UHGV virus genome: UHGV-1370141
Strand: one strand, 5' to 3'
Length of the DNA stretch: 64,000 nucleotides
Source of the DNA: a virus
Each line of letters begins with the position of its first letter. The stretch's first letter is position 1. The position numbers and the translations under genes are program-made. Shown here piece by piece: positions 28,521 through 46,417 of the stretch. Below the pieces are notes generated by a model. That model was not told the DNA's origin, did no database searches, and saw nothing but the letters and a program-made list of their open reading frames with translations.

Positions 28521-28564
28521 TTTATCAGTTCCTAAAAAGTCGAAGTAAACGTTTCACGCGAACA

Positions 28565-28587: not shown

Positions 28588-28599
28588 TAAAATTTTGCG

Positions 28600-28637
28600 A
28601 TAAAAAAGAATATACCTACCTCCTTTCGGAGGTAGGT
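28600..28637 (-). terminator. rho-independent terminator (ACCTACCTCC/GGAGGTAGGT stem family)
   Basis: Hairpin acctacctcc-tttc-ggaggtaggt with T-run on minus strand, downstream of the 28741..29388 gene; the same stem sequence recurs near 45825. Confidence 0.55.
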
Positions 28638-28740
28638 ACGTTCCCTGGCATCGGCATGAAACTACAGGATTAAACCCTTCAGGGCATGAGAATGGGCATT
28701 CTCGAAGGGCGGGCTTTAGCTTTCGGCAGAGCTAAACTGG

Positions 28741-29388
28741 TTATCTCAGGTTATCGATGGTTTTACCTTCACTGTTCATGATGTAAACCGCATCACCTGG
28801 ATAGAAAAATTCGTAAGCATCGTCGACATGTAACACGCCGATAGCCTCGTCAACAGAGTGCTTACCGCTACGGAGCTGATTCTGATAGAAAGTATCACCG
28901 TCTTCGTTGATCAACTCGCGGACTAATTCGACTTCTTGAGATGGAATTGCAAAAGACATCTCTTCTAGGGTAAACCCTACAAAACGGCACACAAAGTCGA
29001 CTGTTACCCCAGGAACATAAATTTCATCGACGGACGTTTCTCCGGTATCCGGATTAAACGGTCGAATAAAAACGACACGTCCAGATGGTGAGGTAGCTTT
29101 CTGTCCTGGAAATGCCCAGGCCCAACCGTCGGTGTTTTTCAGAAATGGGTAAATGGCAGTCAACGTTGACGCTATAAGCAGAGGATCTAACCCTATCAGG
29201 GTCTCATACTCAATCCGAGTGGGTTTTCTCGGCAAATCGATGGCGCTGTTAAAACATAATTCGTTATTTTCGCCGTTAACGACTTTAAGTGCTTCTTTGT
29301 AAACACGGGACATTTTGTCACCTAAACGTACACGTTCGTGTACAGTGATGACTCGATCACCGTTAATGATACGTTTAACTGTAAGCAT
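28741..29388 (-). CDS. hypothetical protein
   Basis: 215-aa ORF. Confidence 0.55.
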   Translation of the reverse strand: MLTVKRIINGDRVITVHERVRLGDKMSRVYKEALKVVNGENNELCFNSAIDLPRKPTRIEYETLIGLDPLLIASTLTAIYPFLKNTDGWAWAFPGQKATSPSGRVVFIRPFNPDTGETSVDEIYVPGVTVDFVCRFVGFTLEEMSFAIPSQEVELVRELINEDGDTFYQNQLRSGKHSVDEAIGVLHVDDAYEFFYPGDAVYIMNSEGKTIDNLR

Positions 29389-29828
29389 TTCTGTTACCTC
29401 GTTCTGTTACTACTACTCGTTCTGTTGTACGTCGCTATACCCCGACGTGTGGGTTAATGGGACGCGTTGAACGTCTGTTGAGGCGCAGCAGGCAGTGGCA
29501 GCAATGACAGCAAGGGCAGCAATGGTACAAACGCCAACGCGAATAAAAAACGCTACTGTCACTGAACACAGCTTCAGAATACTGACAATAACGCAAAAAG
29601 GGTGTCGCTAACGGGTGTCGAGCCCCAGCCTCGGTGTGTAGCCACGTCACCAGGCATAGCGACAAAGTTCGGTACTGGTCAAACACAGCATGACATGGGA
29701 CGATGAAGGTTTACAGGTGATCATCGACCAGTACCGTCGAGTTAACACGTAACTCTCAATTCACATTACAGGGTATTCACGTTACACTTAGGGGAAATAC
29801 CCAATAATTAAATTCTTGGTGGGTGCAG

Positions 29829-29894
29829 GTGGGAGGTTTTATCCTCCCACCGTACAACCGTTTAGGTGGTCTAACCACCAGGGTCTCACGACCC
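29829..29894. other. cluster of three consecutive perfect stem-loops (structured RNA or processing site candidate)
   Basis: ggtgggagg-tttta-cctcccacc, ggtggt-ctaa-accacc, gggtc-tcac-gaccc; no flanking T-runs; non-coding context next to the tRNA-like element. Confidence 0.35.
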
Positions 29895-30042
29895 TAACGT
29901 AAGTCCGAACTTAATCGGTAGGTGTTTACACGTTTTTAAGGAGCTTTCTACCCGTGAGCAAGAGCAGAAGTTATCAGAACAACCGACGCTCAGTTGAAGG
30001 CTGACGAGTTTGTAACTCTTGTTCGATTGCTCTAATCTGGGC

Positions 30043-30115
30043 GACCAATGGCAGGATTCGAACCTGCGAAATAACCGATTATTAGTCGGGTGTTAATTCC
30101 TCTAACTTCAATGGT
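30043..30115 (-). tRNA. tRNA-like element (about 73 nt; anticodon uncertain, possibly pseudo-tRNA)
   Basis: Perfect T-arm GCAGG-TTCGAAT-CCTGC, 7-bp acceptor stem with one mismatch, anticodon-like stem-loop CCGA-CTAATAA-TCGG; D-arm weak and no encoded CCA. Hand-folded only. Confidence 0.4.
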
Positions 30116-30124
30116 CTAAATCCA

Positions 30125-30625
30125 TCAAAACAGCTTAAGTGATTGCGTTTGTCCGCCGCTGTACAGGTCGTAACGTTTCGCCACTTCCACCGCAGTGGGG
30201 GCGTCAACGCCAGCGCCTAATGCACCCAGGGCATAGTGAGCACCTGAGCCTATCGCATACGGTGGCTCTACAAACACGTAACTGGCGTATTTGTTGTCTT
30301 TGCACTTCGAGGCATCAATAACACGCCCGTCTGTCAAAACAGCAAGTACGATAAATTCAATCTGTTCGGGATACGTCGTTTCAAAACGAACCCCACCCCG
30401 TTCGATACCGCCGAAACGTTCAAGCGTGAGTTCTTGACGCACGGATTGCAATGCGGCGACATCACCTGCCAAACCAATCGCTTTCACGTCCTCACCCAAA
30501 AGCTTCCACGTCGTACCCTCAGGCGGCGTGTGAATCTTACGGTATTGCGTAGCAGCGCTTCGCTCTTCCACGGTGACTTGGCCATCGCAAGCTAACGTCT
30601 TTCCGTCAAAAACAATCGTGGTCAT
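30125..30625 (-). CDS. HslV-like peptidase (proteasome beta-type Ntn hydrolase)
   Basis: From the internal ATG: MTTIVFDGKTLACDGQVT resembles HslV MTTIVSVRRNG..IAGDGQ.T (Thr nucleophile after Met); YAIGSGAHYALGALGAG resembles IAIGSGGPYAQAAARAL. The track ORF 30125..30736 extends upstream, but the HslV-type N-terminus and the TAATG overlap with the upstream ORF favour the start at 30625. Confidence 0.6.
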   Translation of the reverse strand: MTTIVFDGKTLACDGQVTVEERSAATQYRKIHTPPEGTTWKLLGEDVKAIGLAGDVAALQSVRQELTLERFGGIERGGVRFETTYPEQIEFIVLAVLTDGRVIDASKCKDNKYASYVFVEPPYAIGSGAHYALGALGAGVDAPTAVEVAKRYDLYSGGQTQSLKLF

Positions 30626-30969
30626 TATGGCGAACCCCAATCCATGATGAACGTAGCCATGCACTGCTCGGCGTGTTTCATGATAGCTTTGTGCAAGCAT
30701 CTCTGAACCGCTGAGAACAGGTAAGGCCGATAACACACATGCGACTCCTTGGGAGACGGGGTGTGAGTAACCAACTGACCATCGGTGAGTTTAACACAAA
30801 CCGTAACAAGCTCTGTGTTTCGCCAATGGTTCACTGACACTGTCTCGATGCAGTTTAGCAGCGACGAATCATAACAACCCCAATTCTCGGGCGCTTTTAG
30901 CAGCCTGCCCAATTCATCGAGTCGGTACGGGACATTCGAACCGATGTTCGGAACGTCTTTGGAATCCAT
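30625..30969 (-). CDS. hypothetical protein, translationally coupled to the HslV-like gene
   Basis: Track ORF 30625..31065 starts with GTG and no SD; ATG at 30969 (M33) is preceded by AGGAGA; its stop overlaps the HslV-like start (TAATG). Confidence 0.45.
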   Translation of the reverse strand: MDSKDVPNIGSNVPYRLDELGRLLKAPENWGCYDSSLLNCIETVSVNHWRNTELVTVCVKLTDGQLVTHTPSPKESHVCYRPYLFSAVQRCLHKAIMKHAEQCMATFIMDWGSP

Positions 30970-31619
30970 ATTAAAATCTCCTGCCGTGGTTTGTGTCACA
31001 CCAACAGGAAACTCTGTAAAAAATAATTCAGCTGCGTACCGGCGTTTCTCAACGGGAGTACGCACCCCTCTCGTCTTTGCGAGCCGTCAAGCTAGAGGAC
31101 ATCACACTGCCAGCGCTACCTGGAGCAGGGTTGTTTCGACGCAACGTCGTAATTCGGATTCTGGCCGCACCTCTGGGAGCGCATCCCACCGTCGGCTGCC
31201 CGCAGGTAAGTTCTACGGACCTCTCGCCAACGTCGCCCCCAGAGGCTGCCACGGTTCACTCGGATTTTCTCATGTCGGCCACGCGTCGCTGATAGCGCGG
31301 CTTCCCCCAAACTTCGTAAGTCGCGGGAACGGTACCGAGCACCTGAATTCGTGGGGTTTACCAACCCCTGAGGTTTTTATCCGAAGTCACGGAAACCCCA
31401 TAGTAAAACAAACCGCCAGTGTTAGGCCGAACGTTTTGTTTTTCCCAGCACACGGTGAACTAAAATCCATGCACTTGAAAAAACACCCCTGGCCAATAAC
31501 CAACCAGGGGGTTCGAGCTCTGCTGAATCATCGCAGACAGTAATCGTGTTGAGCTGTGAGCAGTAATACCTGAACTCCGAAAAATCTTCGTGGTTGTAAA
31601 TCAACCCCACGCAAATCCT

Positions 31620-31857
31620 CCGAACATACCATAGGGTTTTAACGTTCGGAAAAGGGGAATGGGGGTTTACCCCTTGGGTCAGGTGTTCAGGATCTCCCCG
31701 GAAGGGTAACCCCTACCCGATCCCCCAGGTGGGGATTTTACCCTGGCGAATTACCCCGGGTACGATTTTCGGTTTTTCCGGAAAATACCGCTCACCGATC
31801 CCCACCCCCTCACCGGGGGTCAGAGCGAGATCAGATCTCATAATAAGGATCGCGCGC
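31620..31857. repeat. G-tract / C-tract rich structured flank of the AT-rich core
   Basis: Runs such as ggggaatgggggtttacccc, ccccggaagggtaacccctacccgatcccccaggtgggg, ccccaccccctcaccggggg; non-coding. Confidence 0.4.
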
Positions 31858-32270
31858 GTTTTATATATATTTATATATAATATATATTATATATAATAAT
31901 TATATTATTAATATATTTATTTAATATATTTATATTTATTAAAATAAATATATATTAAAATATATAATTAAATAATACCAAAAGGTATTATTATTTTGAT
32001 CCTAAAGGAATAATATATTTATAAATAAATATATTATACTATACGTGTGCGCACGCACACGCGTATAAGGAAGAGATCTTGAGATCAGGTTTTTGAGAGA
32101 GTTAAATTTTTAAGATCGATCCGAGAGACTTGAGGTCTCTCGAGAGTATTTAAAAAACCAAGCAAGATAACTACTCAACTTGAATCTTCAGTGTGTGAAG
32201 ATTCAAAACGTTGATCCAATCACTTGATCCGTTAGTACGCGAAGCGTGAATGTTTTTTTGATCGGCACGG
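31825..32270. promoter_or_regulatory. GATC-dense, palindrome-rich region around the AT core (candidate replication origin / DNA unwinding element)
   Basis: About 11 GATC sites in about 440 bp (expected 1-2), including agatcagatct, agatcttgagatcag, agatcgatcc; palindromes cgagagac-ttgag-gtctctcg and gaatcttca-gtgtg-tgaagattc. Confidence 0.4.
31858..32045. repeat. about 185-bp almost pure A/T tract (TATA/TAAT-rich) bounded by alternating GC elements
   Basis: tttatatatatttatatataatatatattatatataat... bounded by gatcgcgcgcg on the left and gtgtgcgcacgcacacgcg on the right; extreme compositional outlier in a ~48% GC genome. Confidence 0.8.
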
Positions 32271-32659
32271 CGGCTGGCCGTCGGGTGGCAGGGTCGGGTC
32301 TCACCCACCCCCGGCAAGGGGTCGTACGCTTTCTCAATCGCTCCACATCGCGCTAAACGGGGTCAGGTAACCCAAGTGTACTGGGTAGGGGTAAAAACCG
32401 CGTTAAAATCGTTTCTAGAGCGTTTTACGAAATCCGGTTAAAAAATCACCAACCGGATAGGGTTTCCAGAGACAATCCAGCACCCGGTTTTGGGGTTTGT
32501 TGCGGTTTGGGTTAAAATAAATTCTTCGACAGGGAATAAAACCCCGTCAAATTCTTCCTGAGAAGCTCTCTAACGAGAAAAACTCACCCAGGGTATACGA
32601 ACGTACCACCTCGACCTAAAAATGCGTTAGAATCGCTCTGAGGAGGTCGAAGTTTTTTT

Positions 32660-32711
32660 GGCAAAAAAAAAATAAAAAAAAACAGGTGGCCGAAGCCACC
32701 CGATATTTTTT
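32660..32711. terminator. bidirectional rho-independent terminator
   Basis: Hairpin ggtggc-cgaa-gccacc flanked by an about 20-nt A-run and an 8-nt T-run; immediately downstream of the 32712 gene on the minus strand. Confidence 0.6.
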
Positions 32712-33836
32712 TTACGGACAGACCTGTTCTTTCTGAGGGTAGTGCAGTTTTACCTCCAACAGGCTGTAGCCCGTGGCGTAGAAAATCTGACTCCCCACTG
32801 AAGCCACAAAGCCTTCAGGGTCAATCACCTCAACGGAGAAATCCGATTCGAAAAGCCAGGTTTCTTGCTTACCGTCTCGTTCGAATACCGCTGCATAGCG
32901 ACCGTACTCCGCACCCCGTCGGAAGCGGAAAAGCGTTAACCCTGTTTCACGTTCGTAACCGGAAATCACACCCCCTTCCTCGAAAATCTCGGCACGGTTA
33001 CAGCGGGTAACGGTCAATAACGCCGGTCGTTGTGTTGGAATGGTTTTGAACGGGGAAGGCCCTTCGTATGTCGTTGAGACCCAGTCTCCCATGTTGTCCA
33101 GCGCTAACGCTCGGTATGCGATAGGGGACTTGTAATTACACAGCCGATTCCCTTCCGTGTACATCGTGTATTCGATACGTAACGTCGTACCGACGATGTC
33201 TTCCAGGGAAAGTTTGTAGTGTTCTAACTGTGCCTGAATACGTCGTGAGAGTATCGTGCACAGGAAGGTGTGTCCTTCGGAAGAACGACAAACGATTCCG
33301 TAATCCGTTACGGCCAAAAGCGTCGCATCGGTTTTACGGACAGGTTCTAATCGGAATGTGTGTTCACCCGTTTCGATGATAAACTGGGAAACGGCTTGGT
33401 TACGGGATTTGACTTTAATCATGTCAAATACGTCACCGGCTTTTACGATTAATGGCTCAACAACGTTCACCTGGAAAGGCAAGGGTTTCGTGGGATACTG
33501 GCCTAGTGTGGTAATCGTTACCGAACTGAGTTCGGGGTCTGATGCGTCAGGGTCACTAGACAGCCAGTACGTTAACCACTTAGACAGCGTTTGTGGGATA
33601 ACACGGGTGGTGTAAAATAACACCTCGCCTTGTAACCCTGCTTCCGCCAGTTCTCGTGCTAAGAACGAGTTGACGGCGTCGTAAGTACCGTTACGCAGGA
33701 TGTCCATCCCACCGACTCTGTCCAGGTCACAAATCACGCCGTGAGGAAGCACCCACATCTTGACTTGTTGTTCGCGGTCGATGGTACCTTCACGCAACAT
33801 CTTGTGCCAAGCAGGTTTGCGCAGATAATTTCTCAT
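32712..33836 (-). CDS. hypothetical protein
   Basis: Track ORF 32712..33869 trimmed to the ATG at 33836 (M12), which is preceded by AAAGGAG; promoter motif upstream. Confidence 0.55.
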   Translation of the reverse strand: MRNYLRKPAWHKMLREGTIDREQQVKMWVLPHGVICDLDRVGGMDILRNGTYDAVNSFLARELAEAGLQGEVLFYTTRVIPQTLSKWLTYWLSSDPDASDPELSSVTITTLGQYPTKPLPFQVNVVEPLIVKAGDVFDMIKVKSRNQAVSQFIIETGEHTFRLEPVRKTDATLLAVTDYGIVCRSSEGHTFLCTILSRRIQAQLEHYKLSLEDIVGTTLRIEYTMYTEGNRLCNYKSPIAYRALALDNMGDWVSTTYEGPSPFKTIPTQRPALLTVTRCNRAEIFEEGGVISGYERETGLTLFRFRRGAEYGRYAAVFERDGKQETWLFESDFSVEVIDPEGFVASVGSQIFYATGYSLLEVKLHYPQKEQVCP

Positions 33837-33863
33837 GGTAAAAACTCCTTTAGGTAATAAGAC

Positions 33864-33888
33864 TCTCACTAGGATAATATCTATCCGT
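33864..33888 (-). promoter_or_regulatory. recurrent promoter-like motif (coding strand CGGATAGATATTATCCTAGTGAGAG)
   Basis: About 25 nt upstream of the SD of the 32712..33836 gene, in a divergent intergenic region. Approximate. Confidence 0.45.
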
Positions 33889-33908
33889 AATAATTTCGAG
33901 GTTCACTG

Positions 33909-35285: not shown

Positions 35286-35335
35286 AAAAAGAGTTAGCCT
35301 GAGACCCCGGTGGGTCTCAGGCTAGTTTATTTTAA
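35284..35335. terminator. bidirectional rho-independent terminator
   Basis: 12-bp hairpin agcctgagaccc-cggt-gggtctcaggct flanked by A-run and T-run. Confidence 0.65.
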
Positions 35336-35341
35336 AAGGCT

Positions 35342-35581
35342 TCAATGGGCCCCGGATACCGCTAATAGGTGGATGGTGTACACCAAGTTTAGAGCGTAAG
35401 TCGTTGATGTCCCTGCCACCATTAATCCGAATACTGCTACCGCCTGCGCATACCGCGTCGTACGATGACACACACCGTGCGATGCACCGTATCGTTCTAT
35501 CGATTGGTAACTGTGTCTAATCATTTTGTACGTCGCGATCCACGAAAAGAACACGAGCAAATAGTAAATTGGAGCCATCAC
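35342..35581 (-). CDS. small hydrophobic (probably membrane) protein
   Basis: 79 aa with two hydrophobic segments (IYYLLVFFSWIATY, AVAVFGLMVAGTSTTYALNLVYTIHLLAV); start overlaps the terminase stop (ATGA). Confidence 0.4.
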   Translation of the reverse strand: MMAPIYYLLVFFSWIATYKMIRHSYQSIERYGASHGVCHRTTRYAQAVAVFGLMVAGTSTTYALNLVYTIHLLAVSGAH

Positions 35582-37686
35582 TTCATCCTCTGGCGTTGGA
35601 GAAGCTCTCTCAAGCTTTCCATTGACGCCACGTTTTGTGTATCAGTGTTAAGTTGAGAGATGAGGGCCTGAAGTCGGTTACGAGCGGCCATTGCTTGAAC
35701 CGGGTCGAGTAACCCGTGAGTCGTTCTCACTAACTGCTCAATTTCCCCCATCAGTTTTTGCTGTCGCGCTTCCTCTTCGAGCTGTAACTCTTCGTCCACC
35801 CCTTCCCGGTTTTCTGCCAAGTTACGATTACGCATCATCAATCGGCTGTTGTTGATCTCGTAATGTCCTAAGTTATTCCCAAGTAGCAATAACCACATCG
35901 CAAGTAACCAAGAAATCACAAGGTCATCGTGACCGGATGCTTTGTGGTCGATACGACCATTTTTCTCCACGAGGTTAAGAATTTGGTCGATGAGCTCTCC
36001 ACAACGGAGTTTATCGGCAGACAAGCGCAACGCGGTGGTGAATACCTCACCGTACAGTTTACGACGTTTCTCCTGGTCGGTTGAGAACCCGATGTATTTG
36101 CGGAATTTATTCCAGAATTTCTCTGCGCTCCCCACTGGGCCACGGTGATACTCTTTGTAGAGATCGTCCGTACGCGAGTAGTCCTGGGTGATTCGCACAA
36201 ACAAACGACGGTGTAAATCGGGTACCCGTGATTGCAATTGCAGGATAACCGCATCTGCAACGGATGAGCCTGTTGAGCGTCGTTCCAGAATCAGTACCGT
36301 GTTCGGATATCGCACCATAAAATCCGCTAAATGGATCGCGAACGAAATAACGTTGGATTCATTAACGGTAAGCTTACCGGCGTACTCGGCCGTGACTGAG
36401 TTGACGATGGACATGGCGATCGCATCTCGACCTACGGCTTCGGAGGTATCCAAACCGATGACATGACGATCTTTGAGTTTCATCATCATTTCTTCTTCGG
36501 TGTAGTACCAGTCGGTAACGTAGTTTTGTGGCGAGATATCTTTGAACACTGCACGCATTCGTGAAGCATTCATACGATCTGCATCTTCCGCTGAGAACGG
36601 CTTGTTCAGACCACCGGTCGTCCATTCGCCACCGAAGTCACGACGGATCTGGTCAGGGGTACCTTTGGCGTTCGCAATCATTGCCGCTAACTGTTCATCT
36701 GTGGTCCCGAGCTGACGGTGGTTGTACTTCACGTAGAACATGATACGTGGGACTTCTGCCGTGGAGTTAGAACGGATGATGTCAATGAGCTGTTTACGGG
36801 TTGGAATGTCGATATAGCGCTCATCCCACATAATCCCTGACGTCATCAGCTCGTACATGTACTTGCCTTCTTCCGTCGCTAAGTCACCAGGGGTTGTTGC
36901 GAATACGTTACCGTAAGGAACACCTTCCGCTTCGTTAATACGACGTGCCGCTGTACCGGATGCCAGCGCTGCCGGTAGAATGTGGTGTACGTTTTTGGTA
37001 AAGGGGCCTTCGTCCGAGAACAGACGACCAGCAGTAAGTCCACGACCGATACCGTTAGCGGACTCTGGGTCGTTTTGGCCGATACCTGTAATCAGTTTAT
37101 TACCCTGAGCTAAACACGCAAAGGTTTCTCGGTTATCTGGGTCATCAGGATGCGCTGGCCAGAGGTAACTCGGTAAACCGTTACGAAGTTGTTTCAGTTT
37201 GTTGATAGTTTCTTCACGCAGTGCCGGGCCTTTTGTGATAAGAATTGTTCGGGAGTTTTCTAAGAAACGAATCAACCACAGCAGTAAACCACTCATCCCG
37301 ACGGTTTTACCGTGCTGACGCAAGAACTCGACAGCAACGTCGATGTTGTTAAAGAAAATCCAGTACATCGAGAAGTTACCACGGTCGATACGGAACGGGG
37401 AACCGTACTTCATACCGTCCGCAGGCACCCTGACACATTCCCTGAACCAGTACCACGGGTTCTCAGCACATTCGATGGCGATGTATGCCTTCATCTGTTC
37501 TGAAAGGTTTTCATCGAACGGGTCTACGCCCTGCAACAGTGGGTTATGCAACGCCAGGTGAATATACCAGTGTTTGACACCCAGTTTTTTCAGTAAGTTA
37601 GCAAACTTGATAAAGGATTTGTTTGTTGTTTTATCGTCAACAATAGCGCCTGGATAATAACGCCAGTCCGATTCACGTAGTATCAT
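35578..37686 (-). CDS. terminase large subunit
   Basis: Deviant Walker A LRQHGKTVGMSG as in T4 gp17 (SRQLGKT); nuclease-domain-like IGLDTSEAVGRDAIAMSIV; 702 aa. Confidence 0.6.
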   Translation of the reverse strand: MILRESDWRYYPGAIVDDKTTNKSFIKFANLLKKLGVKHWYIHLALHNPLLQGVDPFDENLSEQMKAYIAIECAENPWYWFRECVRVPADGMKYGSPFRIDRGNFSMYWIFFNNIDVAVEFLRQHGKTVGMSGLLLWLIRFLENSRTILITKGPALREETINKLKQLRNGLPSYLWPAHPDDPDNRETFACLAQGNKLITGIGQNDPESANGIGRGLTAGRLFSDEGPFTKNVHHILPAALASGTAARRINEAEGVPYGNVFATTPGDLATEEGKYMYELMTSGIMWDERYIDIPTRKQLIDIIRSNSTAEVPRIMFYVKYNHRQLGTTDEQLAAMIANAKGTPDQIRRDFGGEWTTGGLNKPFSAEDADRMNASRMRAVFKDISPQNYVTDWYYTEEEMMMKLKDRHVIGLDTSEAVGRDAIAMSIVNSVTAEYAGKLTVNESNVISFAIHLADFMVRYPNTVLILERRSTGSSVADAVILQLQSRVPDLHRRLFVRITQDYSRTDDLYKEYHRGPVGSAEKFWNKFRKYIGFSTDQEKRRKLYGEVFTTALRLSADKLRCGELIDQILNLVEKNGRIDHKASGHDDLVISWLLAMWLLLLGNNLGHYEINNSRLMMRNRNLAENREGVDEELQLEEEARQQKLMGEIEQLVRTTHGLLDPVQAMAARNRLQALISQLNTDTQNVASMESLRELLQRQRMK

Positions 37687-37698
37687 ACAGACTCCTAA

Positions 37699-37737
37699 CC
37701 TCCTACCCTTGCGGGTAGGAGGTCTTTTATTTTTTAT
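37699..37737 (+). terminator. hairpin with T-run in plus orientation, between two minus-strand genes
   Basis: cctcctaccc-ttgc-gggtaggagg followed by TCTTTTATTTTTTATT; sits just upstream of the terminase SD on the opposite strand. Confidence 0.4.
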
Positions 37738-39374
37738 TCGATGTGATGCGCAAGCATCGGTGACGCTGCAAGGTTAAGCGTATCGGTTGGAGTACGACGA
37801 ATCCAACGGATCACCAACGGTGCGTCTAACGGGACGCGGTAATCGATAACTTTCTTATCTAACCACTCGTCCACGCTGTAGGTGTAAACTTTACCCCCAA
37901 CGTGAATTTCGAAATGGGTAGGTTCAGGCGGTTCCGATTCGTTACGGCGATCGTACAACGGATAAATCGGTTCGTACAGCAGTTTAAGCCACTCTGCTTT
38001 CGAGCTGACTTTGTTACTGACGTCGATTTCCGAGTAGTTAACGTTGGAGTATTTGAATTCCGCCCATACGTTTTCACCGTATTTCTCACCGTCAGGCAGA
38101 TACTCCAGAATGAAGTTGGTGTTCAGTTCGTTACCTGGATTTACCAGTGTAATCGCAAAGGACTGCGACTGGATAAACGCACGGAACTTACTGTCTACCT
38201 TGCTGATGTCAACCTGGACGTTTAGACGCTGTTTCACACCCATCAATAGCGGGTCAAACGTGGTGCCCGTTGTGTAGTTGACGTGTGCTGTTGCATCGTA
38301 AACCTTACCACGCGTCAGGTTATACAACAGGAAGTCCAGACGATAACCACGGGTAGCATCCAACCATCTCGGTACCACAAACAGTTTCATGGAGTAAGCC
38401 CCATCAACCTGTTCGGTGACAGCGGTGTAGTTCTTCACGATGGTGTCACCAACGATATCCGTACCACCGTAAGTTTCCCCTTTCGAGAGTTTGTAACTCA
38501 GTACGCAAGGGAGACTGTTACCGGCGTTAGACGCGATGTAGAAGGTGTCATGAGAACCGGCGTTACGTAAACCGTTGAATTTCACACGCGCCTGGTCTAT
38601 CGGTAAACGTTTGGTACCGTCACTGTAAATCACATCACACCACAACGGAATAGAGTCGATAGGCATGTTGATAGGCAGTGTCAGCGTGGTACCGTCGTTG
38701 TCCACCAAGAACGGAGAAACCAGCTTAATGCCCAATACTGTACGAGCCGGTGTTTCCTGTGCCATCACCAGGTTGGTTTTGATGATGTGGGCATGGCCGA
38801 TTTGTACCACGTTACCTACGTCCGAGTACACGGCAAACATACACGCTTCACCGTTCTCAACGTCGGCTAAGCACGCGCCAGGTAGCGTTTGTTTAACAAC
38901 ACGTTCAGCGCCTTCCACCGAGATGGTCTGTACGGGCAGGTACGTGTATTTGAGTTTACCGTCTTTGTAATACCCCGACAGGATTTCTGCGTGGTCATCT
39001 ACGGTGCTCCCACGGAAGACACGTACACCGTCTACGTCAGGTCCTTCAAACGTCAACGCGTTATCCAAGACCATCGTTGCAGGCAGTTTTGAACTGTCCA
39101 CGTAGACACGGTATTTGTCACTTCGTAATGGGTAGTGGCCATTCAGACGTCCGTCCTGGTTGGCAACACCCACCCCACCCCACGGTTCAGTTTCCCACGA
39201 GGGTTTCGCGTAGTTAACGCTTACGACGATATCAAAACCAGAGGTGATATCGTTAACGATCAGATCTTTCGGGTTCGGTACGTAACCGGTAGGTCGTTCC
39301 GCCGCGTAAAGCTCCTCAGGACGCCATACACGGAAACCGCGATCCTTGTTGATAATGTCAGTTGTTAAGGCCAT
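37734..39374 (-). CDS. hypothetical protein (possibly virion structural)
   Basis: 546-aa ORF immediately upstream of the terminase gene. Confidence 0.55.
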   Translation of the reverse strand: MALTTDIINKDRGFRVWRPEELYAAERPTGYVPNPKDLIVNDITSGFDIVVSVNYAKPSWETEPWGGVGVANQDGRLNGHYPLRSDKYRVYVDSSKLPATMVLDNALTFEGPDVDGVRVFRGSTVDDHAEILSGYYKDGKLKYTYLPVQTISVEGAERVVKQTLPGACLADVENGEACMFAVYSDVGNVVQIGHAHIIKTNLVMAQETPARTVLGIKLVSPFLVDNDGTTLTLPINMPIDSIPLWCDVIYSDGTKRLPIDQARVKFNGLRNAGSHDTFYIASNAGNSLPCVLSYKLSKGETYGGTDIVGDTIVKNYTAVTEQVDGAYSMKLFVVPRWLDATRGYRLDFLLYNLTRGKVYDATAHVNYTTGTTFDPLLMGVKQRLNVQVDISKVDSKFRAFIQSQSFAITLVNPGNELNTNFILEYLPDGEKYGENVWAEFKYSNVNYSEIDVSNKVSSKAEWLKLLYEPIYPLYDRRNESEPPEPTHFEIHVGGKVYTYSVDEWLDKKVIDYRVPLDAPLVIRWIRRTPTDTLNLAASPMLAHHIE

Positions 39375-39376
39375 GA

Positions 39377-41893: not shown

Positions 41894-41903
41894 AGTGGAC
41901 CTC

Positions 41904-42809
41904 TTACTGGATATTTAAGGGTTTGGTATTCTGGTTCAGTAATGTATCGTAAGCGATGGTAAACGCATCTTTACGTTTTGCTACGTCACATTTCTTAATC
42001 AGCCCACCCAAACGTGAACGGTTGAACACCGAGTTTTCTAAACAGGTGCGGACAATCACAAACAGCGATGGCGGATATTCGATGGCGCTCGTTACCAACT
42101 GGCGGTCGTAGCTGATGTAGCTGCCTAAGCTGGTCGCCAGCATTGACTGCAAGCTAACCACGCTCAGTTCATTAAGACGTGGGATGCCTGCTGCTTTAAC
42201 CATCTCAACGAATTCACCGATATTACGCGGGAACAGAAACTCGGTATTACCGGTGACGGTTTCGAAAAACTGTGGCGAAAGTCGCAGTTCACGTTCCAAC
42301 TGCTGCTGCATACGCAGCATTTTTACTTCATCTTCGAAGTTGTTATAGAACTGTCCTACGGAAAACAGCGCTGCGAGTGCCTTGACTTGACCGCTTTGAT
42401 ATGGAGCAAGTGCATAGGTGTGTTCAATCGCATCGCTAATCCACCTGCTGAAGATCTCATGGTGATAAGACATTCGGGCCATCAACGCACCGAGCTTATC
42501 ATTGTTCCGTTTCCACACTAATTCCCAACGTGCTTCGTCTAGACGTAATTGGTGCTCAATGGGGTTACGAATTTTTAACTCGCCGTTTTTATCGAGCGTC
42601 GTAAAAGTTCGTGCGTCAACGTACACGTCATCACCAATGACGATAGGTAACGGGAACGGTTTTACATCGGCTGTTTCGATAACGTAATGGACTTCTTCAG
42701 ACTGAGCAACAGTTTGGTTAACCTTACGAGCCAATTCCAAGTCCGCGTGTAAGCGGGTAAGGTCTATGGTATTAAAGGGAGTGCCGTTGTAAGCGTTTTT
42801 GAGTGCCAT
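41904..42809 (-). CDS. hypothetical protein
   Basis: 301-aa ORF at the head of the minus-strand block. Confidence 0.55.
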   Translation of the reverse strand: MALKNAYNGTPFNTIDLTRLHADLELARKVNQTVAQSEEVHYVIETADVKPFPLPIVIGDDVYVDARTFTTLDKNGELKIRNPIEHQLRLDEARWELVWKRNNDKLGALMARMSYHHEIFSRWISDAIEHTYALAPYQSGQVKALAALFSVGQFYNNFEDEVKMLRMQQQLERELRLSPQFFETVTGNTEFLFPRNIGEFVEMVKAAGIPRLNELSVVSLQSMLATSLGSYISYDRQLVTSAIEYPPSLFVIVRTCLENSVFNRSRLGGLIKKCDVAKRKDAFTIAYDTLLNQNTKPLNIQ

Positions 42810-42871
42810 GAGTATGATACCTTAGTATGACCCTTTTTCAAGGTCTTAAAGACTGAATATGGAGACGTTCC

Positions 42872-44929
42872 ATGAGTTTTATTCCACGAAACGGCGCGCC
42901 GTTGAATAACAAGCAGGGGTGGCAGGACAATTCTGTCCCTGAGCTTGTTCGGACCCCCACGGGTGATCCGATTCATAAGCCGCTGATCTTCACCTTTGCT
43001 TCACGCGGGGTAGACGACGAGGCGTTCCCGTTATCCGGGGATAATGCATTGTCTCTGCTTGGTCGCGATCTGTTCGACCTGCGTGGCGATTACGCGACGT
43101 TTAACACACCTTTCCAGGCGATGTTCAACGCTAACGGTAACGATTGCATGTATCAGCGCCTGGTACCGGATGATGCGAAAACCGCAGCTATCCGTCTGGT
43201 TGCTGACGTACTGGAAACGAAAGTTCCCGCTTATGAGCGTGTGAACGGCGTGATTCAGTACGACGTAAGCGGTAAGCCGAAAGTCAGAGAACAGGTAGAC
43301 GGTCTGAAAATCGTCTTCCGACTGTCCGTCATCGAAGATGTCAGCAACGTAAAAGCGGGCACCGTCACCGAAGGTACGATGACTGATACCGAGACTCAGG
43401 CGAAATCAAAACTCTATCCGATTTTTGATATCAAAGGTCCGTACGCGGGTGCTGATGTCAACGGATTTGGTTTCAAACTGGTTCCGCTGAACGAAAAATC
43501 CAGCCCGTCTATTGCGTCTGCTTATCAGACGAATGTAGGCGGACGTATGTACGCACTGCAATGGTTTGAGACCTTAGCAGGGGTAACATCACCGGTGATT
43601 TGGAAGACCCTCAAAGGTCTTAGCAGCATCAATGTTAGCTTCAAGCCCGATGCATACTATCAGCCGATGAGCACCCAGCTGGACTTCGAAGTCGTCGTTC
43701 CAGATGCGTATCGTCAGACGATGCCGGATATCGGTGGTCTGCCGGATTACGGCCCGTTCGAAGAGTTTTACATCTACCGCGAAAACCTGGAAACGGTGCT
43801 GAAACTGGCCCAATCTAAGATTCAAAACGCAAAACCGGCAATTACCGATCCGTATATGGTCGATATTTTCGGTGGCGTTGACTTAACCGGTCAGCTCTAC
43901 GACGGTTTACAAGTTAACCCGTCTGAAGAAGTAGGTAAAATTGTTTTCTCTGCTTCGAATATCCACTACCTGCAAGGCGGTAGTAACGGGACCATGAACA
44001 ACGATGTTTACGACGAACTGGTTCGCCGTGAAATGTCTCTGTTCCCGGACGGTGGTAAAGTCCGCTACGATAACGAACTGAAATACTCTCTGGGTTGCTT
44101 CTGGGACTCCGGCTTCAGCATGGATACCAAGAAAGCCCTGACGAACTTCATCGGTCGTTCTCGTAACACGTTCCTGACTCTTTGCACTCACGTTTACAAC
44201 CAAGGTCGTAACGATCTGCAAACGGAAGAGAACGTGAAGACAGCGCTGATCGAAATGATCACGTCTGTACCTGAATCGTCTTATTACGGTACCCCAGCGT
44301 GCCGTGGGATGATTTGTGGTCAGGACGCCTACATCCGTAACTCCTCTTACAAGAAACCGGTTCCGATGTGTTACAGCATCGCGAACTTCTTCTCGAAGTA
44401 TCTGGGTTCCGGTGAAGGTCGCGCTAAACCTGCTTATCGCTTCAGCCGTGGTGAAGAGACGATTATCGAAGATCTGTACGATCTGAGTATGCCGTGGAAA
44501 GGTAACGAGATTTACGCATCCGACTGGGATGTGTCACTGGTTACTGCACGTTCCCGCGACTACTATCGTTTGTTCATCCCAGCACTTCAGTCCATCTATA
44601 GCGAAGAACGTTCAGTGCTGAATAACGCACTGTTTAACTTCATCATGACCTACGTTTATCGTGTCAGTGATCAAGTTTGGGCAGATATGTCCGGTGAGAG
44701 CCGTATGACGGACGACGAACGCGCGAAAATGATTGAGAACAAAATCACCGAGCGTTTGGAAGGTCGCCTGGATAGTATTGCCAACATTACTCCGAGTGCG
44801 TACATGACAGCGGATGACAAAGCTAACGGCTATTCCATCACGCTGGACATTAAAGCTGAAGGCGGTGTACTGTTGACGCAGTTCAACACGACGATCAAAG
44901 TTTATCGTCGCGACAGTACGGAGAGCTAA
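42872..44929 (+). CDS. candidate tail sheath protein
   Basis: 685 aa with optimal codons and an SD, immediately followed by a 291-aa gene and a strong terminator (sheath-tube-like arrangement). No motif-level evidence. Confidence 0.35.
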   Translation: MSFIPRNGAPLNNKQGWQDNSVPELVRTPTGDPIHKPLIFTFASRGVDDEAFPLSGDNALSLLGRDLFDLRGDYATFNTPFQAMFNANGNDCMYQRLVPDDAKTAAIRLVADVLETKVPAYERVNGVIQYDVSGKPKVREQVDGLKIVFRLSVIEDVSNVKAGTVTEGTMTDTETQAKSKLYPIFDIKGPYAGADVNGFGFKLVPLNEKSSPSIASAYQTNVGGRMYALQWFETLAGVTSPVIWKTLKGLSSINVSFKPDAYYQPMSTQLDFEVVVPDAYRQTMPDIGGLPDYGPFEEFYIYRENLETVLKLAQSKIQNAKPAITDPYMVDIFGGVDLTGQLYDGLQVNPSEEVGKIVFSASNIHYLQGGSNGTMNNDVYDELVRREMSLFPDGGKVRYDNELKYSLGCFWDSGFSMDTKKALTNFIGRSRNTFLTLCTHVYNQGRNDLQTEENVKTALIEMITSVPESSYYGTPACRGMICGQDAYIRNSSYKKPVPMCYSIANFFSKYLGSGEGRAKPAYRFSRGEETIIEDLYDLSMPWKGNEIYASDWDVSLVTARSRDYYRLFIPALQSIYSEERSVLNNALFNFIMTYVYRVSDQVWADMSGESRMTDDERAKMIENKITERLEGRLDSIANITPSAYMTADDKANGYSITLDIKAEGGVLLTQFNTTIKVYRRDSTES

Positions 44930-44932
44930 TAG

Positions 44933-45808
44933 ATGTCCATCAAAGAACGCATGATTTTACCTGACCAGGGCTTGCATGTTGACGGTGGTCAGTACGACAT
45001 GGTCAACCCGTTCAGCTCGGGTCAAAACGGTCCGGTCGGACAGGTTGGTAAGTTTGTTACCAACGCCCACCGTCTGCGTCGTAACGTAATCGCCCGTGTG
45101 ATGGAATTCCCTCGCTGGGTTGATTACATGCCGAACCCACAATTGTGGCGTCAGGCAATCAAATCGTTTATCGAGGTTCACACCACGATTACCGGTTTGG
45201 ATAAATCCCTGAGTGCTGAGTACGTGCAGACCCAACAGGGTCGTAACAACCGCGTCCAGTATGAAGCTGGTCTGGTAACGGAAGCTCTGTCTTCTGTTAC
45301 GCACACTACCCCGGATAAACTGGGTAAAGTGTATCAGAACATGCTCTGGGCGTGGCTGGTATACGGTGTTTGTGACCCGCACACAGGCCACCCTGGTCTG
45401 GCGGCAATCAACCCGAACGTTCCTGACCACCTGCCGGATATGTATAGCATGACTGTGCTGTACTTCGAACCGGATGCGTATCAGCGTAAACCGCAGAACG
45501 CATGGTGGCTGACCAACATGGCTCCTGAGTCTAACGGTCAGGATATCGGTGAACGTGACCCGAACACTGGTCCGCAAACTAACGAACTGTCCATCACCTT
45601 TACCTCCCAGCAATGGACAGGTTGGGGCCCGATGCAGGCAGCGCAGAAGGAACTGGAACGTATGAAACTGTACGGTCTGCGTCCTTACGAGCGCAAACTG
45701 TGGCTCACTCCGTCTCAACAGACCGACGGTATCAACCCAGACGTCGATGCTACGGCTGGCGGTTATCGTTCTGTGTCCGACGAGCAGATGGCCAATCAGC
45801 TTCGTTAA
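44933..45808 (+). CDS. candidate tail tube protein
   Basis: 291 aa, 3 nt downstream of the candidate sheath gene, GGAGAG SD; size and position only. Confidence 0.3.
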   Translation: MSIKERMILPDQGLHVDGGQYDMVNPFSSGQNGPVGQVGKFVTNAHRLRRNVIARVMEFPRWVDYMPNPQLWRQAIKSFIEVHTTITGLDKSLSAEYVQTQQGRNNRVQYEAGLVTEALSSVTHTTPDKLGKVYQNMLWAWLVYGVCDPHTGHPGLAAINPNVPDHLPDMYSMTVLYFEPDAYQRKPQNAWWLTNMAPESNGQDIGERDPNTGPQTNELSITFTSQQWTGWGPMQAAQKELERMKLYGLRPYERKLWLTPSQQTDGINPDVDATAGGYRSVSDEQMANQLR

Positions 45809-45856
45809 GAAAAAAAAATAAGTTTACCTACCTCCGTAAAGGAGGTAGGTACTTTT
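45809..45856. terminator. bidirectional rho-independent terminator (ACCTACCTCC/GGAGGTAGGT stem family)
   Basis: Hairpin tacctacctcc-gtaaa-ggaggtaggta flanked by A-run and T-run between convergent genes. Confidence 0.65.
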
Positions 45857-46417
45857 TTATTTTTCTTCCGTTCCCAGGACTTTCGATGCGGATGCACGGA
45901 TGATTAAGTTTTTCATTTGCATCAACAACAGGAAGGTTGAAATTAAATCGTAAGTGGTCGGTGGGGTGTTGGTGATATCGTCAGGATAAGCGAGTTTCCA
46001 CAGCGTTAATTCGTTGGAACCCTCACCTTTTTCGTTACGTACGATTTCGTTGTCGTGTAACGAAACCAGTTCACGTTCAAGGGAATCGATAACATCTTTA
46101 CCGAATTCGATTAACAGTAACTGTTTGAAACGAATAACAAAACCGGCGATAACGTTACCTGAAGCCGTTGATCTGATTTCAGTTAGGAAACGTTGATATC
46201 CGTTGATGGTGTGGGGGATGGTTTCAGCAGGCCAGCCTGCAATGTGTGGGAACGCATCTTCCAACACAGATTTCATTGACAGCGTAAAGACTTCACCGAT
46301 TTGGTTTAGGCGATTAATAACCTCAGTGCGCGTCATGACGTTAGGTAACGGTTTTACATCATCGACAATCTGATGTCCTGGTGTAACAGGCCCACCAAAA
46401 AGGTTAGGATTTGACAT
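45857..46417 (-). CDS. hypothetical protein
   Basis: 186-aa ORF with AGGAG SD. Confidence 0.5.
   Translation of the reverse strand: MSNPNLFGGPVTPGHQIVDDVKPLPNVMTRTEVINRLNQIGEVFTLSMKSVLEDAFPHIAGWPAETIPHTINGYQRFLTEIRSTASGNVIAGFVIRFKQLLLIEFGKDVIDSLERELVSLHDNEIVRNEKGEGSNELTLWKLAYPDDITNTPPTTYDLISTFLLLMQMKNLIIRASASKVLGTEEK

Follow-up and report, generated by a model that had tools for sequence, protein, structure and literature searches.

Introduction

Intrinsic transcription terminators have been mapped in two phiKZ-like jumbo phages. In phiKZ, 61 of them share the motif BCCYCCCCHWWDGGGRRGGBYTTATKYYGT (Putzeys et al. 2024, PMC10914365). In 201phi2-1 a similar motif, motif A, was described (n=59), and eight terminators of this phage are active in vivo, also in uninfected Pseudomonas cells (PMC11512511). 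T4-like phages have repeated hairpin cassettes of another kind, the promoter-early stem-loops or PeSLs (Arbiol et al. 2010, PMC2839356; Comeau et al. 2014, PMC4122927). By definition these combine a terminator with an early promoter; they border variable ORFs in hyperplastic regions and coincide with the boundaries of indels or replacements. Intercistronic stem-loops, for their part, set operon stoichiometry through two routes, internal termination or selective RNA processing and stabilisation, for example in the Clostridium cip-cel and ABC-transporter operons (PMC4423207, PMC9045158).

Here we analyzed hairpins in the window, the whole 64,000-nucleotide stretch of phage DNA presented above. 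It comes from a phiKZ-like jumbo phage of the family Chimalliviridae, with Erskinevirus and SPN3US among its relatives. The terminase-to-tail-sheath block has ~75-77% nucleotide identity with the Erwinia phages Asesino and phiEaH2 and with Salmonella SPN3US-like phages, synteny is kept with Erskinevirus (a genus assigned to Chimalliviridae) and Seoulvirus phages, and the gene order terminase, structural genes, tail sheath and tail tube matches that of phiKZ. The genome therefore comes from the same family of jumbo phages as the phiKZ-type terminators.

Results

Three hairpins and a shared stem

Sequence reading and an exhaustive hairpin scan of the window located the following hairpins.

Site 1 hairpin: 28613-28623 TACCTACCTCC, loop tttc, 28628-28638 GGAGGTAGGTA, perfect 11-bp stem
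Site 2 hairpin: 45825-45835 TACCTACCTCC, loop gtaaa, 45841-45851 GGAGGTAGGTA, perfect 11-bp stem
Site 3 hairpin: 37698-37708 ACCTCCTACCC, loop ttgc, 37713-37723 GGGTAGGAGGT, perfect 11-bp stem

Reading and scan both confirmed that sites 1 and 2 carry the same stem. The original prediction was right about this identity, but the stem measures 11 bp instead of 10 and its coordinates had been misplaced by at most one base. Folded as RNA, the three sites reach -21.5 to -26.3 kcal/mol (z -4.2 to -7.0 against shuffles). Their 5' arms are G-free and their 3' arms C-free, which corresponds to the C/Y-rich 5' arm and G/R-rich 3' arm of the phiKZ-type terminator. The number of copies of the 10-mer in the window is not significant (5 matches with at most one mismatch against 2.3 expected, 7 out of 100 shuffles reaching 5). 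The identity of two complete arms is significant: the next longest run in common among the 78 pairs of strong hairpins in the window is 6 nt, and an identical 11-mer has P ~4e-5 per pair, the restricted arm composition being already allowed for. Site 3 had been described as bearing a related stem. The hairpin is present, but it has only the 6-mers ACCTCC and CCTACC in common with sites 1 and 2, and these are unremarkable because they belong to the stem grammar of the phage family.

Anatomy of sites 1 and 2

The hairpins of sites 1 and 2 lie within or near the following features.

28600..28639, minus strand: site 1, predicted intrinsic terminator (hairpin and T-run)
28560..28585, minus strand: promoter-like box GATAGATATTATTTTAGTGAG, weak statistical support
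45809..45866, unstranded: site 2, predicted bidirectional intrinsic terminator between convergent genes

Site 1 is located between the co-directional minus-strand ORFs 28741..29388 and 28080..28520, among small ORFs without a nucleotide match in the annotated phage collection, and is kept in a 97% relative (L063). On the minus strand it reads G-UACCUACCUCC-GAAA-GGAGGUAGGUA-U (28612-28639), with a GNRA loop on the transcribed strand, directly followed by the tail AUUCUUUUUUAU (28600-28611); no T-run is found on the plus strand. Its RNA fold is the most stable of the three (-26.3 kcal/mol, z -7.0). The box GATAGATATTATTTTAGTGAG lies ~25 nt downstream of the terminator and ~45 nt upstream of the ATG at 28520, so that site 1 has the appearance of a terminator-then-promoter junction. 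The same box, whose statistical support is weak, is also present at 33865-33880(-) and 48651-48666(-); it comes after site 1 and after the hairpin at 48705-48733 but not after site 2.

Site 2 consists of an A-run with ATAAG (45810-45822), the hairpin (45825-45851) and then CTTTTTTATTTTT (45852-45864), and folds on both strands (-23.8 kcal/mol on plus, -23.5 on minus). The hairpin starts 17 nt past the stop of a tail-tube-like virion structural gene (44933..45808, plus) and finishes 6 nt before the end of the ORF 45857..46417 (minus). All 21 readable orthologous loci have both the A-run/hairpin/T-run layout and a perfect stem. The stems themselves vary, at least eight different ones being found with fully compensated pairing, including TACCTACCTCC, CCTCACTCC, TACCTCTCTCC, ACCCAACTCC, ACCCACTCC, ACCCCACTC, AGACCTACCACCC and CCGACCCC. 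The aligned loci thus indicate that structure, not sequence, is conserved at this position. The direction of change is ambiguous because the SPN3US stem, TACCTCTCTCC, is just two pairs away.

Sites 1 and 2 both show a stable G+C-rich hairpin past a gene with a U-tract directly after it, as in canonical Rho-independent terminators. Their prediction as terminators is well supported by these hairpins just past stop codons, by T-runs on the transcribed strand or strands and by the comparison with relatives.

A terminator style common to the family

A T-rich region containing TTAT was found immediately 3' of the stem at site 1 on the minus strand (UAUUCUUUUUUAU), at site 2 on the plus (CUUUUUUAU) and minus (AACUUAU) strands, and at site 3 on the antisense strand only. 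TTAT is present in nearly all site 2 orthologs, and of the 17 hairpin-plus-T-run sites in the window 13 have it within 15 nt downstream, where 7.1 were expected (3 of 2000 shuffles). The hairpin scan gave two further examples of the same style, the second flanked by CTTATCGTTTTC on the plus strand and AGGTTTTCTTTTTTT on the minus strand.

22146..22165, minus strand: same-style terminator, ACCCUCUC-UUCG-GAGAGGGU then UUAUUUUUUUUU
27148..27174, unstranded: same-style hairpin, ACCCACTACTC-cgttc-GAGTAGTGGGT

In terminator-like hairpins from six chimallivirus samples the C-skew of the 5' arm averages +0.37 (n=45, p=4e-4). The T4 and E. coli controls, a small sample of 150 kb, give -0.22 (n=11; Mann-Whitney p=0.008). 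Among strongly polarised hairpins that have a T/A-run, 21 are C-type and 5 G-type. This polarity is a tendency and not a rule: the window alone gives 5 against 3 (p=0.07), and G-type and mixed hairpins also stand at gene ends there. By inspection no site matches the 30-nt phiKZ consensus literally, the 11-bp stems having TAC units and a different tail, and the loops GAAA and GTAAA breaking its HWWD. The likeness of the sites to phiKZ terminators is one of style and not a consensus match.

Copies of the stem in other genomes

The exact hairpin was found at 8 loci in IMG/VR, all on jumbo-phage contigs, and once among 185,579 bacterial species genomes; metagenomic contigs of 222-228 kb carry 2-3 copies each. 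SKEP01000003, a 97-98% relative, has the stem at site 1, site 2 and a third site. A fourth site carries a 10-bp version, ACCTACCTCC, in a 97% relative (L075); in three ~83% relatives all 11 bp are present there. Site 2 and the third and fourth sites all lie between conserved convergent genes. In the outgroups the third site reads CCTACCTCCC in SPN3US and GACCTACTACC in Asesino and phiEaH2. At the fourth site the outgroup stems are unrelated (CGAGTAGCCC in Asesino, CGAGTACCCC in SPN3US, AACACCTACCC in ChrisDB) and the A/T-run flanks are kept; on this evidence an unrelated ancestral stem was clearly replaced outright. Phage Huxley has, independently, ACCCACTCC-ttcg at both site 2 and the third site, a repeat not found in its congeners Caitlin and ChrisDB. 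Loop orientation is inverted between near-identical genomes, and at site 2 the exact stem is kept between ~83% identical genomes with different loops.

The proposed duplication of a terminator module finds support in modified form, with the same stem at three to four non-homologous positions, differing stems in sister clades and one stem replaced. The same 11-mer also occurs at unrelated sites in the distant chimalliviruses Vibrio VP4B and Photobacterium PDCC-1, and EL and SEGD1 have another 11-mer in common, TACCCACTCCC. These cases indicate that the stem vocabulary is narrow. Convergence on a favoured word may conceivably account for the stem identity.

A conserved stem-loop before the terminase gene

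The site 3 hairpin lies within the following feature.

37684..37723, minus strand: site 3, intercistronic stem-loop, conserved, on the gene strand

On the gene strand site 3 reads ACCUCCUACCC-GCAA-GGGUAGGAGGU (37698-37723). Directly 3' of it come a Shine-Dalgarno AGGAG (37692-37696) and the terminase large-subunit ATG (37684-37686), where a canonical Rho-independent terminator would have its U-tract; no U-run follows the stem on this strand, and a T-run is present on the antisense (plus) strand only (37724-37738). The hairpin stands upstream of the terminase ATG in every relative examined, with GNRA or UUCG loops on the gene strand and no U-run next to it, and most relatives have no T-run on either strand. 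Pairing is kept in 93% of alignment cells against at most 67% in slid registers. Four of the 11 pairs show compensatory changes; CCUCC/GGAGG is invariant across 11 relatives and the inner pairs covary, which supports the helix. The orthologs of this site (CCTCCTCCCC-GCAA-GGGGAGGAGG) have the stem nearest to the phiKZ consensus, but without the TTAT tail on the gene strand. Site 3, which had been listed as a terminator, does not qualify as a canonical one: its gene strand lacks a U-run and adjoins the terminase ribosome-binding site, and most relatives are without a T-run.

Site 3 is an element apart from sites 1 and 2, carried on the mRNA after a virion structural gene and ahead of the terminase large-subunit gene. 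Its most likely role is transcription attenuation, or differential stabilising or processing of the polycistronic mRNA, by which terminase expression may be tuned relative to the upstream structural genes.

Discussion

We consider it probable (roughly 0.78) that sites 1 and 2 are phiKZ-type intrinsic terminators with a copied stem and that site 3 is a separate element. Structures, positions, conservation, covariation and copy distribution of the hairpins were observed directly; termination at sites 1 and 2 we infer from their anatomy and from experiments on the distant relatives phiKZ and 201phi2-1. They look like factor-independent terminators of the Chimalliviridae type, a style that is already published for phiKZ-like jumbo phages. 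In such a terminator the nascent RNA would fold into an 11-12 bp hairpin with only C, U and A in the 5' arm and only G, A and U in the 3' arm, and the U-rich tract with one interrupting A right after it (CUUUUUUAUUUUU) would release the transcript. Site 2, with its symmetric A-run and T-run between convergent genes, would terminate in both directions, and site 1, next to the promoter-like box, on the minus strand only. The identical stem would be one "word" of a restricted family-wide vocabulary and not itself a recognition site. Presence at three to four sites, other stems in sister clades and the replacement at the fourth site point to copying or gene conversion within the stem grammar. Terminator positions in the lineage of this phage seem to have acquired the stem from one another, possibly by gene conversion, copy-choice or recombination via the flanking A/T-runs, and the phage would therefore carry it at about four places.

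The original prediction had also raised a sequence-specific RNA element, a protein-binding or RNase site, as opposed to a generic hairpin. A strict site is disfavoured because orthologous stems drift with compensatory changes, at least eight of them at site 2, and because the phiKZ and 201phi2-1 counterparts are mapped intrinsic terminators (PMC10914365, PMC11512511); fully generic hairpins are disfavoured because of the family-wide sequence style. A broader version, in which the ACCUACCUCC/GGAGGUAGGU helix and the site 3 CCUCC/GGAGG are read by a phage or host factor and the sequence is under selection, not just the structure, we regard as unlikely. The reader could be an RNA-binding protein, an endoribonuclease, the non-canonical phage RNA polymerases or, via the embedded Shine-Dalgarno (GGAGG) and anti-Shine-Dalgarno (CCUCC), the ribosome. 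It would explain why the exact 11-mer turns up again in unrelated chimalliviruses of Vibrio and Photobacterium and hardly at all in bacteria, as well as the invariant CCUCC/GGAGG of site 3 amid covarying pairs and the site 2 stem maintained between ~83% identical genomes. However, the many compensated stems of sister clades mean that no single sequence is required, the eight 201phi2-1 terminators need no phage factors, being active in uninfected Pseudomonas, GGAG/CUCC is buried inside a very stable helix, and G-type and mixed hairpins also stand at gene ends in the window. It is likewise unlikely that a conserved phage factor reads the hairpins and has thereby kept the vocabulary narrow, even though G-free 5' arms of TACC/CTCC/CCC units and a TTAT-interrupted U-tract are found in Pseudomonas, Vibrio, Photobacterium, Salmonella and Erwinia chimalliviruses alike. 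Candidates could be the non-canonical phage RNA polymerases, or an RNA-binding or export component that is associated with the phage nucleus and acts at mRNA 3' ends. If this were true, selection for an optimal recognition site would maintain the identical copies, and the CCUCC/GGAGG hairpin before the terminase gene would be part of the same recognition system.

A PeSL-like mobile cassette, in which the hairpin, together with the A/T-rich sequence around it and, at site 1, the promoter box, serves as a repeated recombination substrate and mainly mediates gene shuffling, indels or inversions, is improbable in our view. Identical copies within one genome and the position of site 1, among unmatched small ORFs and next to a promoter-like box, are in its favour. 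So is one contig (L058), in which the reverse complement of the site 2 right flank is joined to the third-site right flank exactly at the hairpin, as expected from inversion between two palindromic copies; but this contig, the sole and ambiguous hint of rearrangement, could be an assembly chimera at a ~45-bp repeat. Of the four copies, three are flanked by conserved convergent core genes and do not mark indel boundaries, the window is colinear with its 97% relatives across sites 1 and 2 with no indel bounded by a hairpin copy, and no promoter motif is generally coupled to hairpins, no 7-mer being enriched downstream of the 17 terminator-like sites of the window. That two independent terminators came upon one stem by coincidence is scarcely credible. 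The 10-mer count taken alone would allow it, as would the narrow arm alphabet, because of which 6- to 9-mers are commonly shared, but it is contradicted by arms identical over the full 11 bp with the same boundaries, in a window with just 78 pairs, by the recurrence of the stem at three to four sites per genome in the clade and by the replacement at the fourth site.

Comparison with known systems

Site 3 resembles the stem-loops of the Clostridium cip-cel and ABC-transporter operons in being stable, conserved and intercistronic within one direction of transcription, with a highly expressed structural gene on one side and, on the other, the terminase gene, whose product is presumably required in smaller amounts. 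Site 3 differs in that it abuts the downstream Shine-Dalgarno and includes a Shine-Dalgarno-like GGAGG paired to CCUCC, an arrangement not described for those operons. With the PeSLs of T4-like phages, sites 1 and 2 have in common that the genome of a large lytic phage has short terminator cassettes repeated in several positions, that identity between copies implies exchange and, for site 1, that a terminator is followed by a promoter-like box. In contrast to PeSLs, most copies stand between conserved convergent genes, without general promoter coupling or a copy-bounded indel.

Bacterial Rho-independent terminators likewise have a G+C-rich hairpin, a U-tract and stable tetraloops (GNRA, UUCG), and bidirectional ones have the A-tract/hairpin/T-tract symmetry at convergent gene pairs. 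To our knowledge, neither such arm polarity nor a TTAT-interrupted U-tract is known in bacterial terminators. The closest counterparts are those of phiKZ and 201phi2-1, phages of another host and genus than this Enterobacterales phage near Erskinevirus. Their stems are shorter (~7, CCYCCCC, against 11 bp of TACC/CTCC units here) and the T-run before AT is longer here (CTTTTTTAT against YTTAT). Common to all are a hairpin with a short loop, C/T-rich on its 5' side and G/A-rich on its 3' side, a T-rich tract with TTAT within a few nucleotides of the stem, placement at gene ends, in some cases bidirectionally between convergent genes, and many copies per genome that are alike in sequence and structure.

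The shared stem in its genomic setting

The window is part of a jumbo phage genome that, over the block running from terminase to tail sheath/tail tube, shares ~75-77% nucleotide identity with the Erwinia phages Asesino and phiEaH2 and with Salmonella SPN3US-like phages. Erskinevirus is placed in the Chimalliviridae, the phiKZ-like nucleus-forming family, and phiKZ carries the terminase-to-tail-tube block in the same gene order as the window. Reading of the sequence combined with a hairpin scan located the three hairpins of the original prediction essentially where it had placed them. They lie, with their neighboring genes, as follows:

28613-28638, site 1: arms TACCTACCTCC (28613-28623) and GGAGGTAGGTA (28628-28638), loop tttc
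28741..29388 and 28080..28520, minus strand: ORFs flanking site 1, no assigned function
45825-45851, site 2: the same two arms as site 1 (45825-45835 and 45841-45851), loop gtaaa
44933..45808, plus strand: tail-tube-like virion structural gene on the left of site 2; the hairpin begins 17 nt past its stop codon
45857..46417, minus strand: convergent ORF on the right of site 2, which ends 6 nt before the ORF end
37698-37723, site 3: arms ACCTCCTACCC (37698-37708) and GGGTAGGAGGT (37713-37723), loop ttgc
37734..39374, minus strand: virion structural gene flanking site 3
35578..37686, minus strand: terminase large subunit flanking site 3

The stem shared by sites 1 and 2 is indeed identical, but it spans 11 bp and not the 10 bp first proposed. 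RNA folding of sites 1-3 gave -21.5 to -26.3 kcal/mol, far under shuffled controls. The count of shared 10-mers is by itself not significant; the identity of the whole arms is, the next longest run shared among the 78 pairs of strong hairpins in the window being 6 nt and the probability of an identical 11-mer being ~4e-5 per pair even with the restricted arm composition. Site 1 has a T-run on the minus strand only, where its loop reads GAAA, and site 2 is flanked by an A-run and, at its opposite end, by a T-run, as expected of a bidirectional terminator. An Rfam scan of the entire window returned no family at site 1, 2 or 3 and only two hits elsewhere: a group I catalytic intron at 14787-15099 on the minus strand (RF00028, 63.7 bits, full-length model match) and a minus-strand tRNA-Ile gene at 30040-30116 with the unusual anticodon AAU (written aat), also called by ARAGORN.

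Layout, not stem sequence, is conserved at site 2

As orthologs of site 2 we took the relatives' loci downstream of the tail-tube-like gene, 21 of which are readable beyond the stop codon. RNAalifold on MAFFT alignments of the site 2 and site 3 orthologs was uninformative because the hairpin register slips where stems differ; hairpins were instead detected directly in each ortholog and pairs were counted explicitly in the alignable subset. All 21 loci have the same succession of A-run, perfect hairpin and T-run, with variable stems: TACCTACCTCC is restricted to the clade of the window, where it is found down to ~83% nucleotide identity, and the other stems include CCTCACTCC, TACCTCTCTCC, ACCCAACTCC, (C)ACCCACTCC, ACCCCACTC, AGACCTACCACCC and CCGACCCC. 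Two distant stem forms differ in composition, and UUCG loops are common on the plus strand. Such differing stems within a conserved layout argue against a strict sequence-specific recognition element, which had been one of the two explanations proposed for the reuse of the stem.

Probable copying of the stem between terminator positions

IMG/VR, bacterial and archaeal genomes, and metagenomes were searched for exact matches to TACCTACCTCC-N3-6-GGAGGTAGGTA. The pattern occurs at 8 loci in IMG/VR, every one on jumbo-size contigs, once among 185,579 bacterial and archaeal species genomes, and at 19 metagenome loci, with contigs related to the window's clade accounting for 15. These clade contigs are mostly 201-229 kb long and carry 2-3 copies each. 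Four short metagenome contigs also have the exact hairpin (L055, L062, L064 and L067); L055, the one inspected, is phage-like and carries a helicase. Two further terminator positions, here called the third and fourth sites, lie outside the window and were read in relatives.

Terminator positions carrying the hairpin in relatives of the window
SKEP01000003 (97-98% identical to the window): site 1, site 2, third site
~83% relatives: site 2, third site, fourth site

The fourth site, ~5.5 kb past the window's right end, has a 10-bp version, ACCTACCTCC, in a 97% relative and in two ~83% relatives; like site 2, the third and fourth sites are flanked by convergent genes. Orthologs of the third- and fourth-site genes were traced by tblastn against the phage collection, a locus search with single proteins having returned close relatives only. 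The third-site stem is CCTACCTCCC in SPN3US and GACCTACTACC in Asesino and phiEaH2, so that this position looks like the ancestral carrier of the word (the stem arm sequence). At the fourth site the outgroups have an unrelated stem, common to Asesino (CGAGTAGCCC) and SPN3US (CGAGTACCCC), and ChrisDB has AACACCTACCC; the A-run and T-run flanks are kept despite the unrelated stem. The stem was therefore replaced outright in the window's clade, a change that gradual substitution with compensation explains poorly. The ancestral state of site 2 is ambiguous since the SPN3US stem TACCTCTCTCC differs by two pairs only.

Concerted evolution as a general rule was rejected: the site 2 and third-site stems differ within each of Asesino, phiEaH2, Caitlin, ChrisDB, Wellington, Phobos and SPN3US, and homogenization of the two positions is confined to the window's clade and Huxley. 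In Huxley, word and loop (ACCCACTCC-ttcg) are identical between site 2 and the third site, whereas Caitlin and ChrisDB, of the same genus, carry unrelated third-site stems; Huxley is thus an independent parallel to the window's clade.

The sites 1 and 2 11-mer is also found at unrelated sites in Vibrio and Photobacterium chimalliviruses. In addition, EL (L010 33017-33050) and SEGD1 (L012 18793-18823), phages with no nucleotide similarity to each other, have the 11-bp terminator arm TACCCACTCCC in common, and the related word ACCCACTCC doubles as the site 2 stem in several Erwinia phages; with TACCCACTCCC/ACCCACTCC the stem vocabulary of the family has a second word that recurs. By a rough estimate these distant matches are borderline, not impossible, as coincidences, and a narrow vocabulary is their most economical account. 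We conclude that the identical stems probably reflect copying of the stem-loop between terminator positions, in a vocabulary already held narrow by selection. The duplication of a terminator module, the other explanation in the original prediction, thus survives as stem copying among terminator positions, as indicated by the fourth-site replacement and the outgroup stems.

An otherwise identical hairpin with an inverted loop and unchanged flank orientation was observed between near-identical genomes (gtaaa versus tttac; gaaa versus tttc), at the third site in locus L072 versus L059 and L068, and at the fourth site in L075 and L077 versus L076 and in L073 versus L069. Conversion by a donor in the opposite orientation, or a template switch across the palindrome, would produce such flips.

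The hairpin upstream of terminase

On the gene strand the site 3 stem is directly followed by UAGGAG, five nucleotides and AUG, and its T-run is on the opposite strand only. A gene-strand hairpin precedes the terminase ATG in 16 of 16 relatives examined, with GNRA or UUCG loops on that strand, at 1-2 nt from the real Shine-Dalgarno or, in the three most distant relatives (L046-L048), at ~10-12 nt. None of the 16 has a U-run after the stem on that strand, and the upstream A-run (the antisense T-run) is present only in the window and its closest relatives. Across the alignable subset, pairing is kept in 93% of cells versus at most 67% in slid registers, with compensatory changes in 4 of the 11 pairs and invariant outer CCUCC/GGAGG pairs. 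Because terminase transcription must pass through the hairpin, site 3 is not an efficient gene-strand terminator; it is an element different from sites 1 and 2. In the equivalent region of phiKZ a hairpin comes right after the structural gene's stop, followed by ~100 nt to the terminase start. We infer that the most likely role of site 3 is modulation of the polycistronic mRNA, where the hairpin would partly attenuate transcription, or make stability or processing differ, at the point where the abundant structural genes give way to terminase. The paired GGAGG, which resembles a Shine-Dalgarno sequence, may also affect translation, and in this phage the antisense T-run CTTTTATTTTTT could provide an additional stop for antisense transcription.

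A terminator style shared with phiKZ-like phages

In phiKZ, 133 terminators were mapped by Putzeys et al. 2024, and most predicted intrinsic terminators (61) have in common the motif 5'-BCCYCCCCHWWDGGGRRGGBYTTATKYYGT-3', in which a 5' arm rich in C and T and a 3' arm rich in G and A precede a TTAT region (PMC10914365). Mapping in 201phi2-1 gave 132 termination sites; its motif A (n=59) is similar to the phiKZ motif, and eight of its terminators were functional in a terminator trap in uninfected Pseudomonas (PMC11512511). Sites 1-3 have no G in their 5' arms and no C in their 3' arms, and TTAT occurs within 15 nt downstream at 13 of the 17 hairpin-plus-T-run sites of the window, versus 7.1 expected by composition (3/2000 shuffles). 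Strong intergenic hairpins of the same kind are numerous in samples of Asesino, SEGD1 (SPN3US-like), Pseudomonas phage EL, Vibrio phage VP4B and phiKZ, for example:

EL: ACCCTCCTACCTCC, CCCTACCCACTCCC
VP4B: TAACTACCTACCTCC, ACCTACCCCC
SEGD1: CCTACCTCCC
phiKZ: AACCCCCTCC

The 5' arms of terminator-like hairpins from six chimallivirus samples are C-skewed (mean +0.37, n=45, p=4e-4), versus a mean of -0.22 (n=11) in a control of 100 kb of T4 plus 50 kb of E. coli (Mann-Whitney p=0.008). Within the window the skew is no more than a tendency (+0.29, n=12, p=0.07), and its gene ends also have hairpins with the reverse or a mixed polarity; the C-skewed type is therefore a prominent subclass and not a rule. 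The dinucleotide grammar of the arms is narrow, with CC, CT, AC, TA and TC predominating, and A in the arms is therefore nearly always within TAC. An exact 13-mer, TTTTATCGCAAAA, lies 3' of two different terminator hairpins, at 19738-19750 on the plus strand (hairpin 19704-19729) and at 28593-28605 on the minus strand (site 1); it may represent a longer tail motif or belong to a downstream signal.

Other features near the sites

The 100 non-coding nucleotides that separate the stop codon of ORF 28741..29388 from the site 1 hairpin (28640-28740, minus strand) adopt a predicted multi-helix fold, which together with the site 1 terminator reaches -54.7 kcal/mol (z -4.7). The region is conserved in the 97% relative L063, had no match in the annotated phage collection and could represent either a 3' UTR with structure or a small RNA with site 1 as its terminator. 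The conserved giant-phage sRNA (PMC11512511) was discarded as a candidate for this structure because it is upstream of a tail gene (gp182/gp277 homologues).

A k-mer promoter search found no enriched 7-mer coupled to the window's terminators. A candidate promoter box, GATAGATATTAT-NN-TAGTGAG, is present on the minus strand at 28560-28585, 33860-33885 and 48651-48671 and in a weaker form at 18505-18520, 30-55 nt before start codons of that strand; 'ttgaaaaatatct[tg]aga' stands just ahead of the copies at 48651 and 18505. Counted as a degenerate pattern, the box is weakly enriched (7 matches versus 3.0 expected). A large intergenic gap contains ~180 nt of A and T only (31860-32040), with many overlapping palindromes and sigma-70-like hexamers, which could be an origin or a promoter cluster. 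In the metagenome contig L058 (OGZS01001409.1, 1-587 onward) the reverse complement of the site 2 right flank is joined to the third-site right flank exactly at the hairpin, which equally fits an inversion of ~87 kb between palindromic copies or an assembly chimera at the ~45-bp repeat.

Significance and comparison with known systems

These observations extend the conserved-terminator phenomenon from phiKZ and 201phi2-1 to an Enterobacterales branch of nucleus-forming jumbo phages, and suggest that EL-like, Vibrio and Photobacterium members have the same stem style; our literature search turned up no account of these elements for SPN3US-like or Erwinia jumbo phages. They leave current understanding unchanged. 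They can serve for transcription-unit annotation in poorly annotated 220-250 kb genomes and as a source of strong, compact, bidirectional terminators for synthetic biology. The comparison of orthologous sites also offers a clean, small case of concerted evolution of regulatory hairpins, in which one word overwrites others and the A/T-run flanks stay. Arm polarity and the TTAT signature give a lead on termination by the unusual phage RNA polymerases inside the phage nucleus. In the window, the 1388-aa ORF 53718..57884 (minus strand) is by synteny the ortholog of Asesino gp263, annotated as an RNA polymerase beta subunit. Pfam gave no match to it at E<=1e-3, so the assignment comes from the Asesino annotation and synteny alone; the missing match fits how extremely divergent these phage polymerases are.

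The promoter-early stem-loop (PeSL) cassettes of T4-like phages (PMC2839356, PMC4122927) are alike in being multi-copy, but a general promoter coupling and an association with indel boundaries, which define them, were not found for the window hairpins. Further resemblance is partial and confined to two cases, the promoter-like box that follows site 1 and contig L058 with its junction. The nearest known system is the conserved intrinsic terminator of phiKZ and 201phi2-1, with which the window elements share the family, the arm polarity and the TTAT tail. The literal 30-nt phiKZ consensus is however unmatched in the window, where stems are longer and a longer T-run precedes AT, and termination, mapped in phiKZ and 201phi2-1, is predicted from sequence for sites 1 and 2. 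Sites 1 and 2 are probably terminators of this known kind, and the new part is a small evolutionary twist, the probable copying of the stem.
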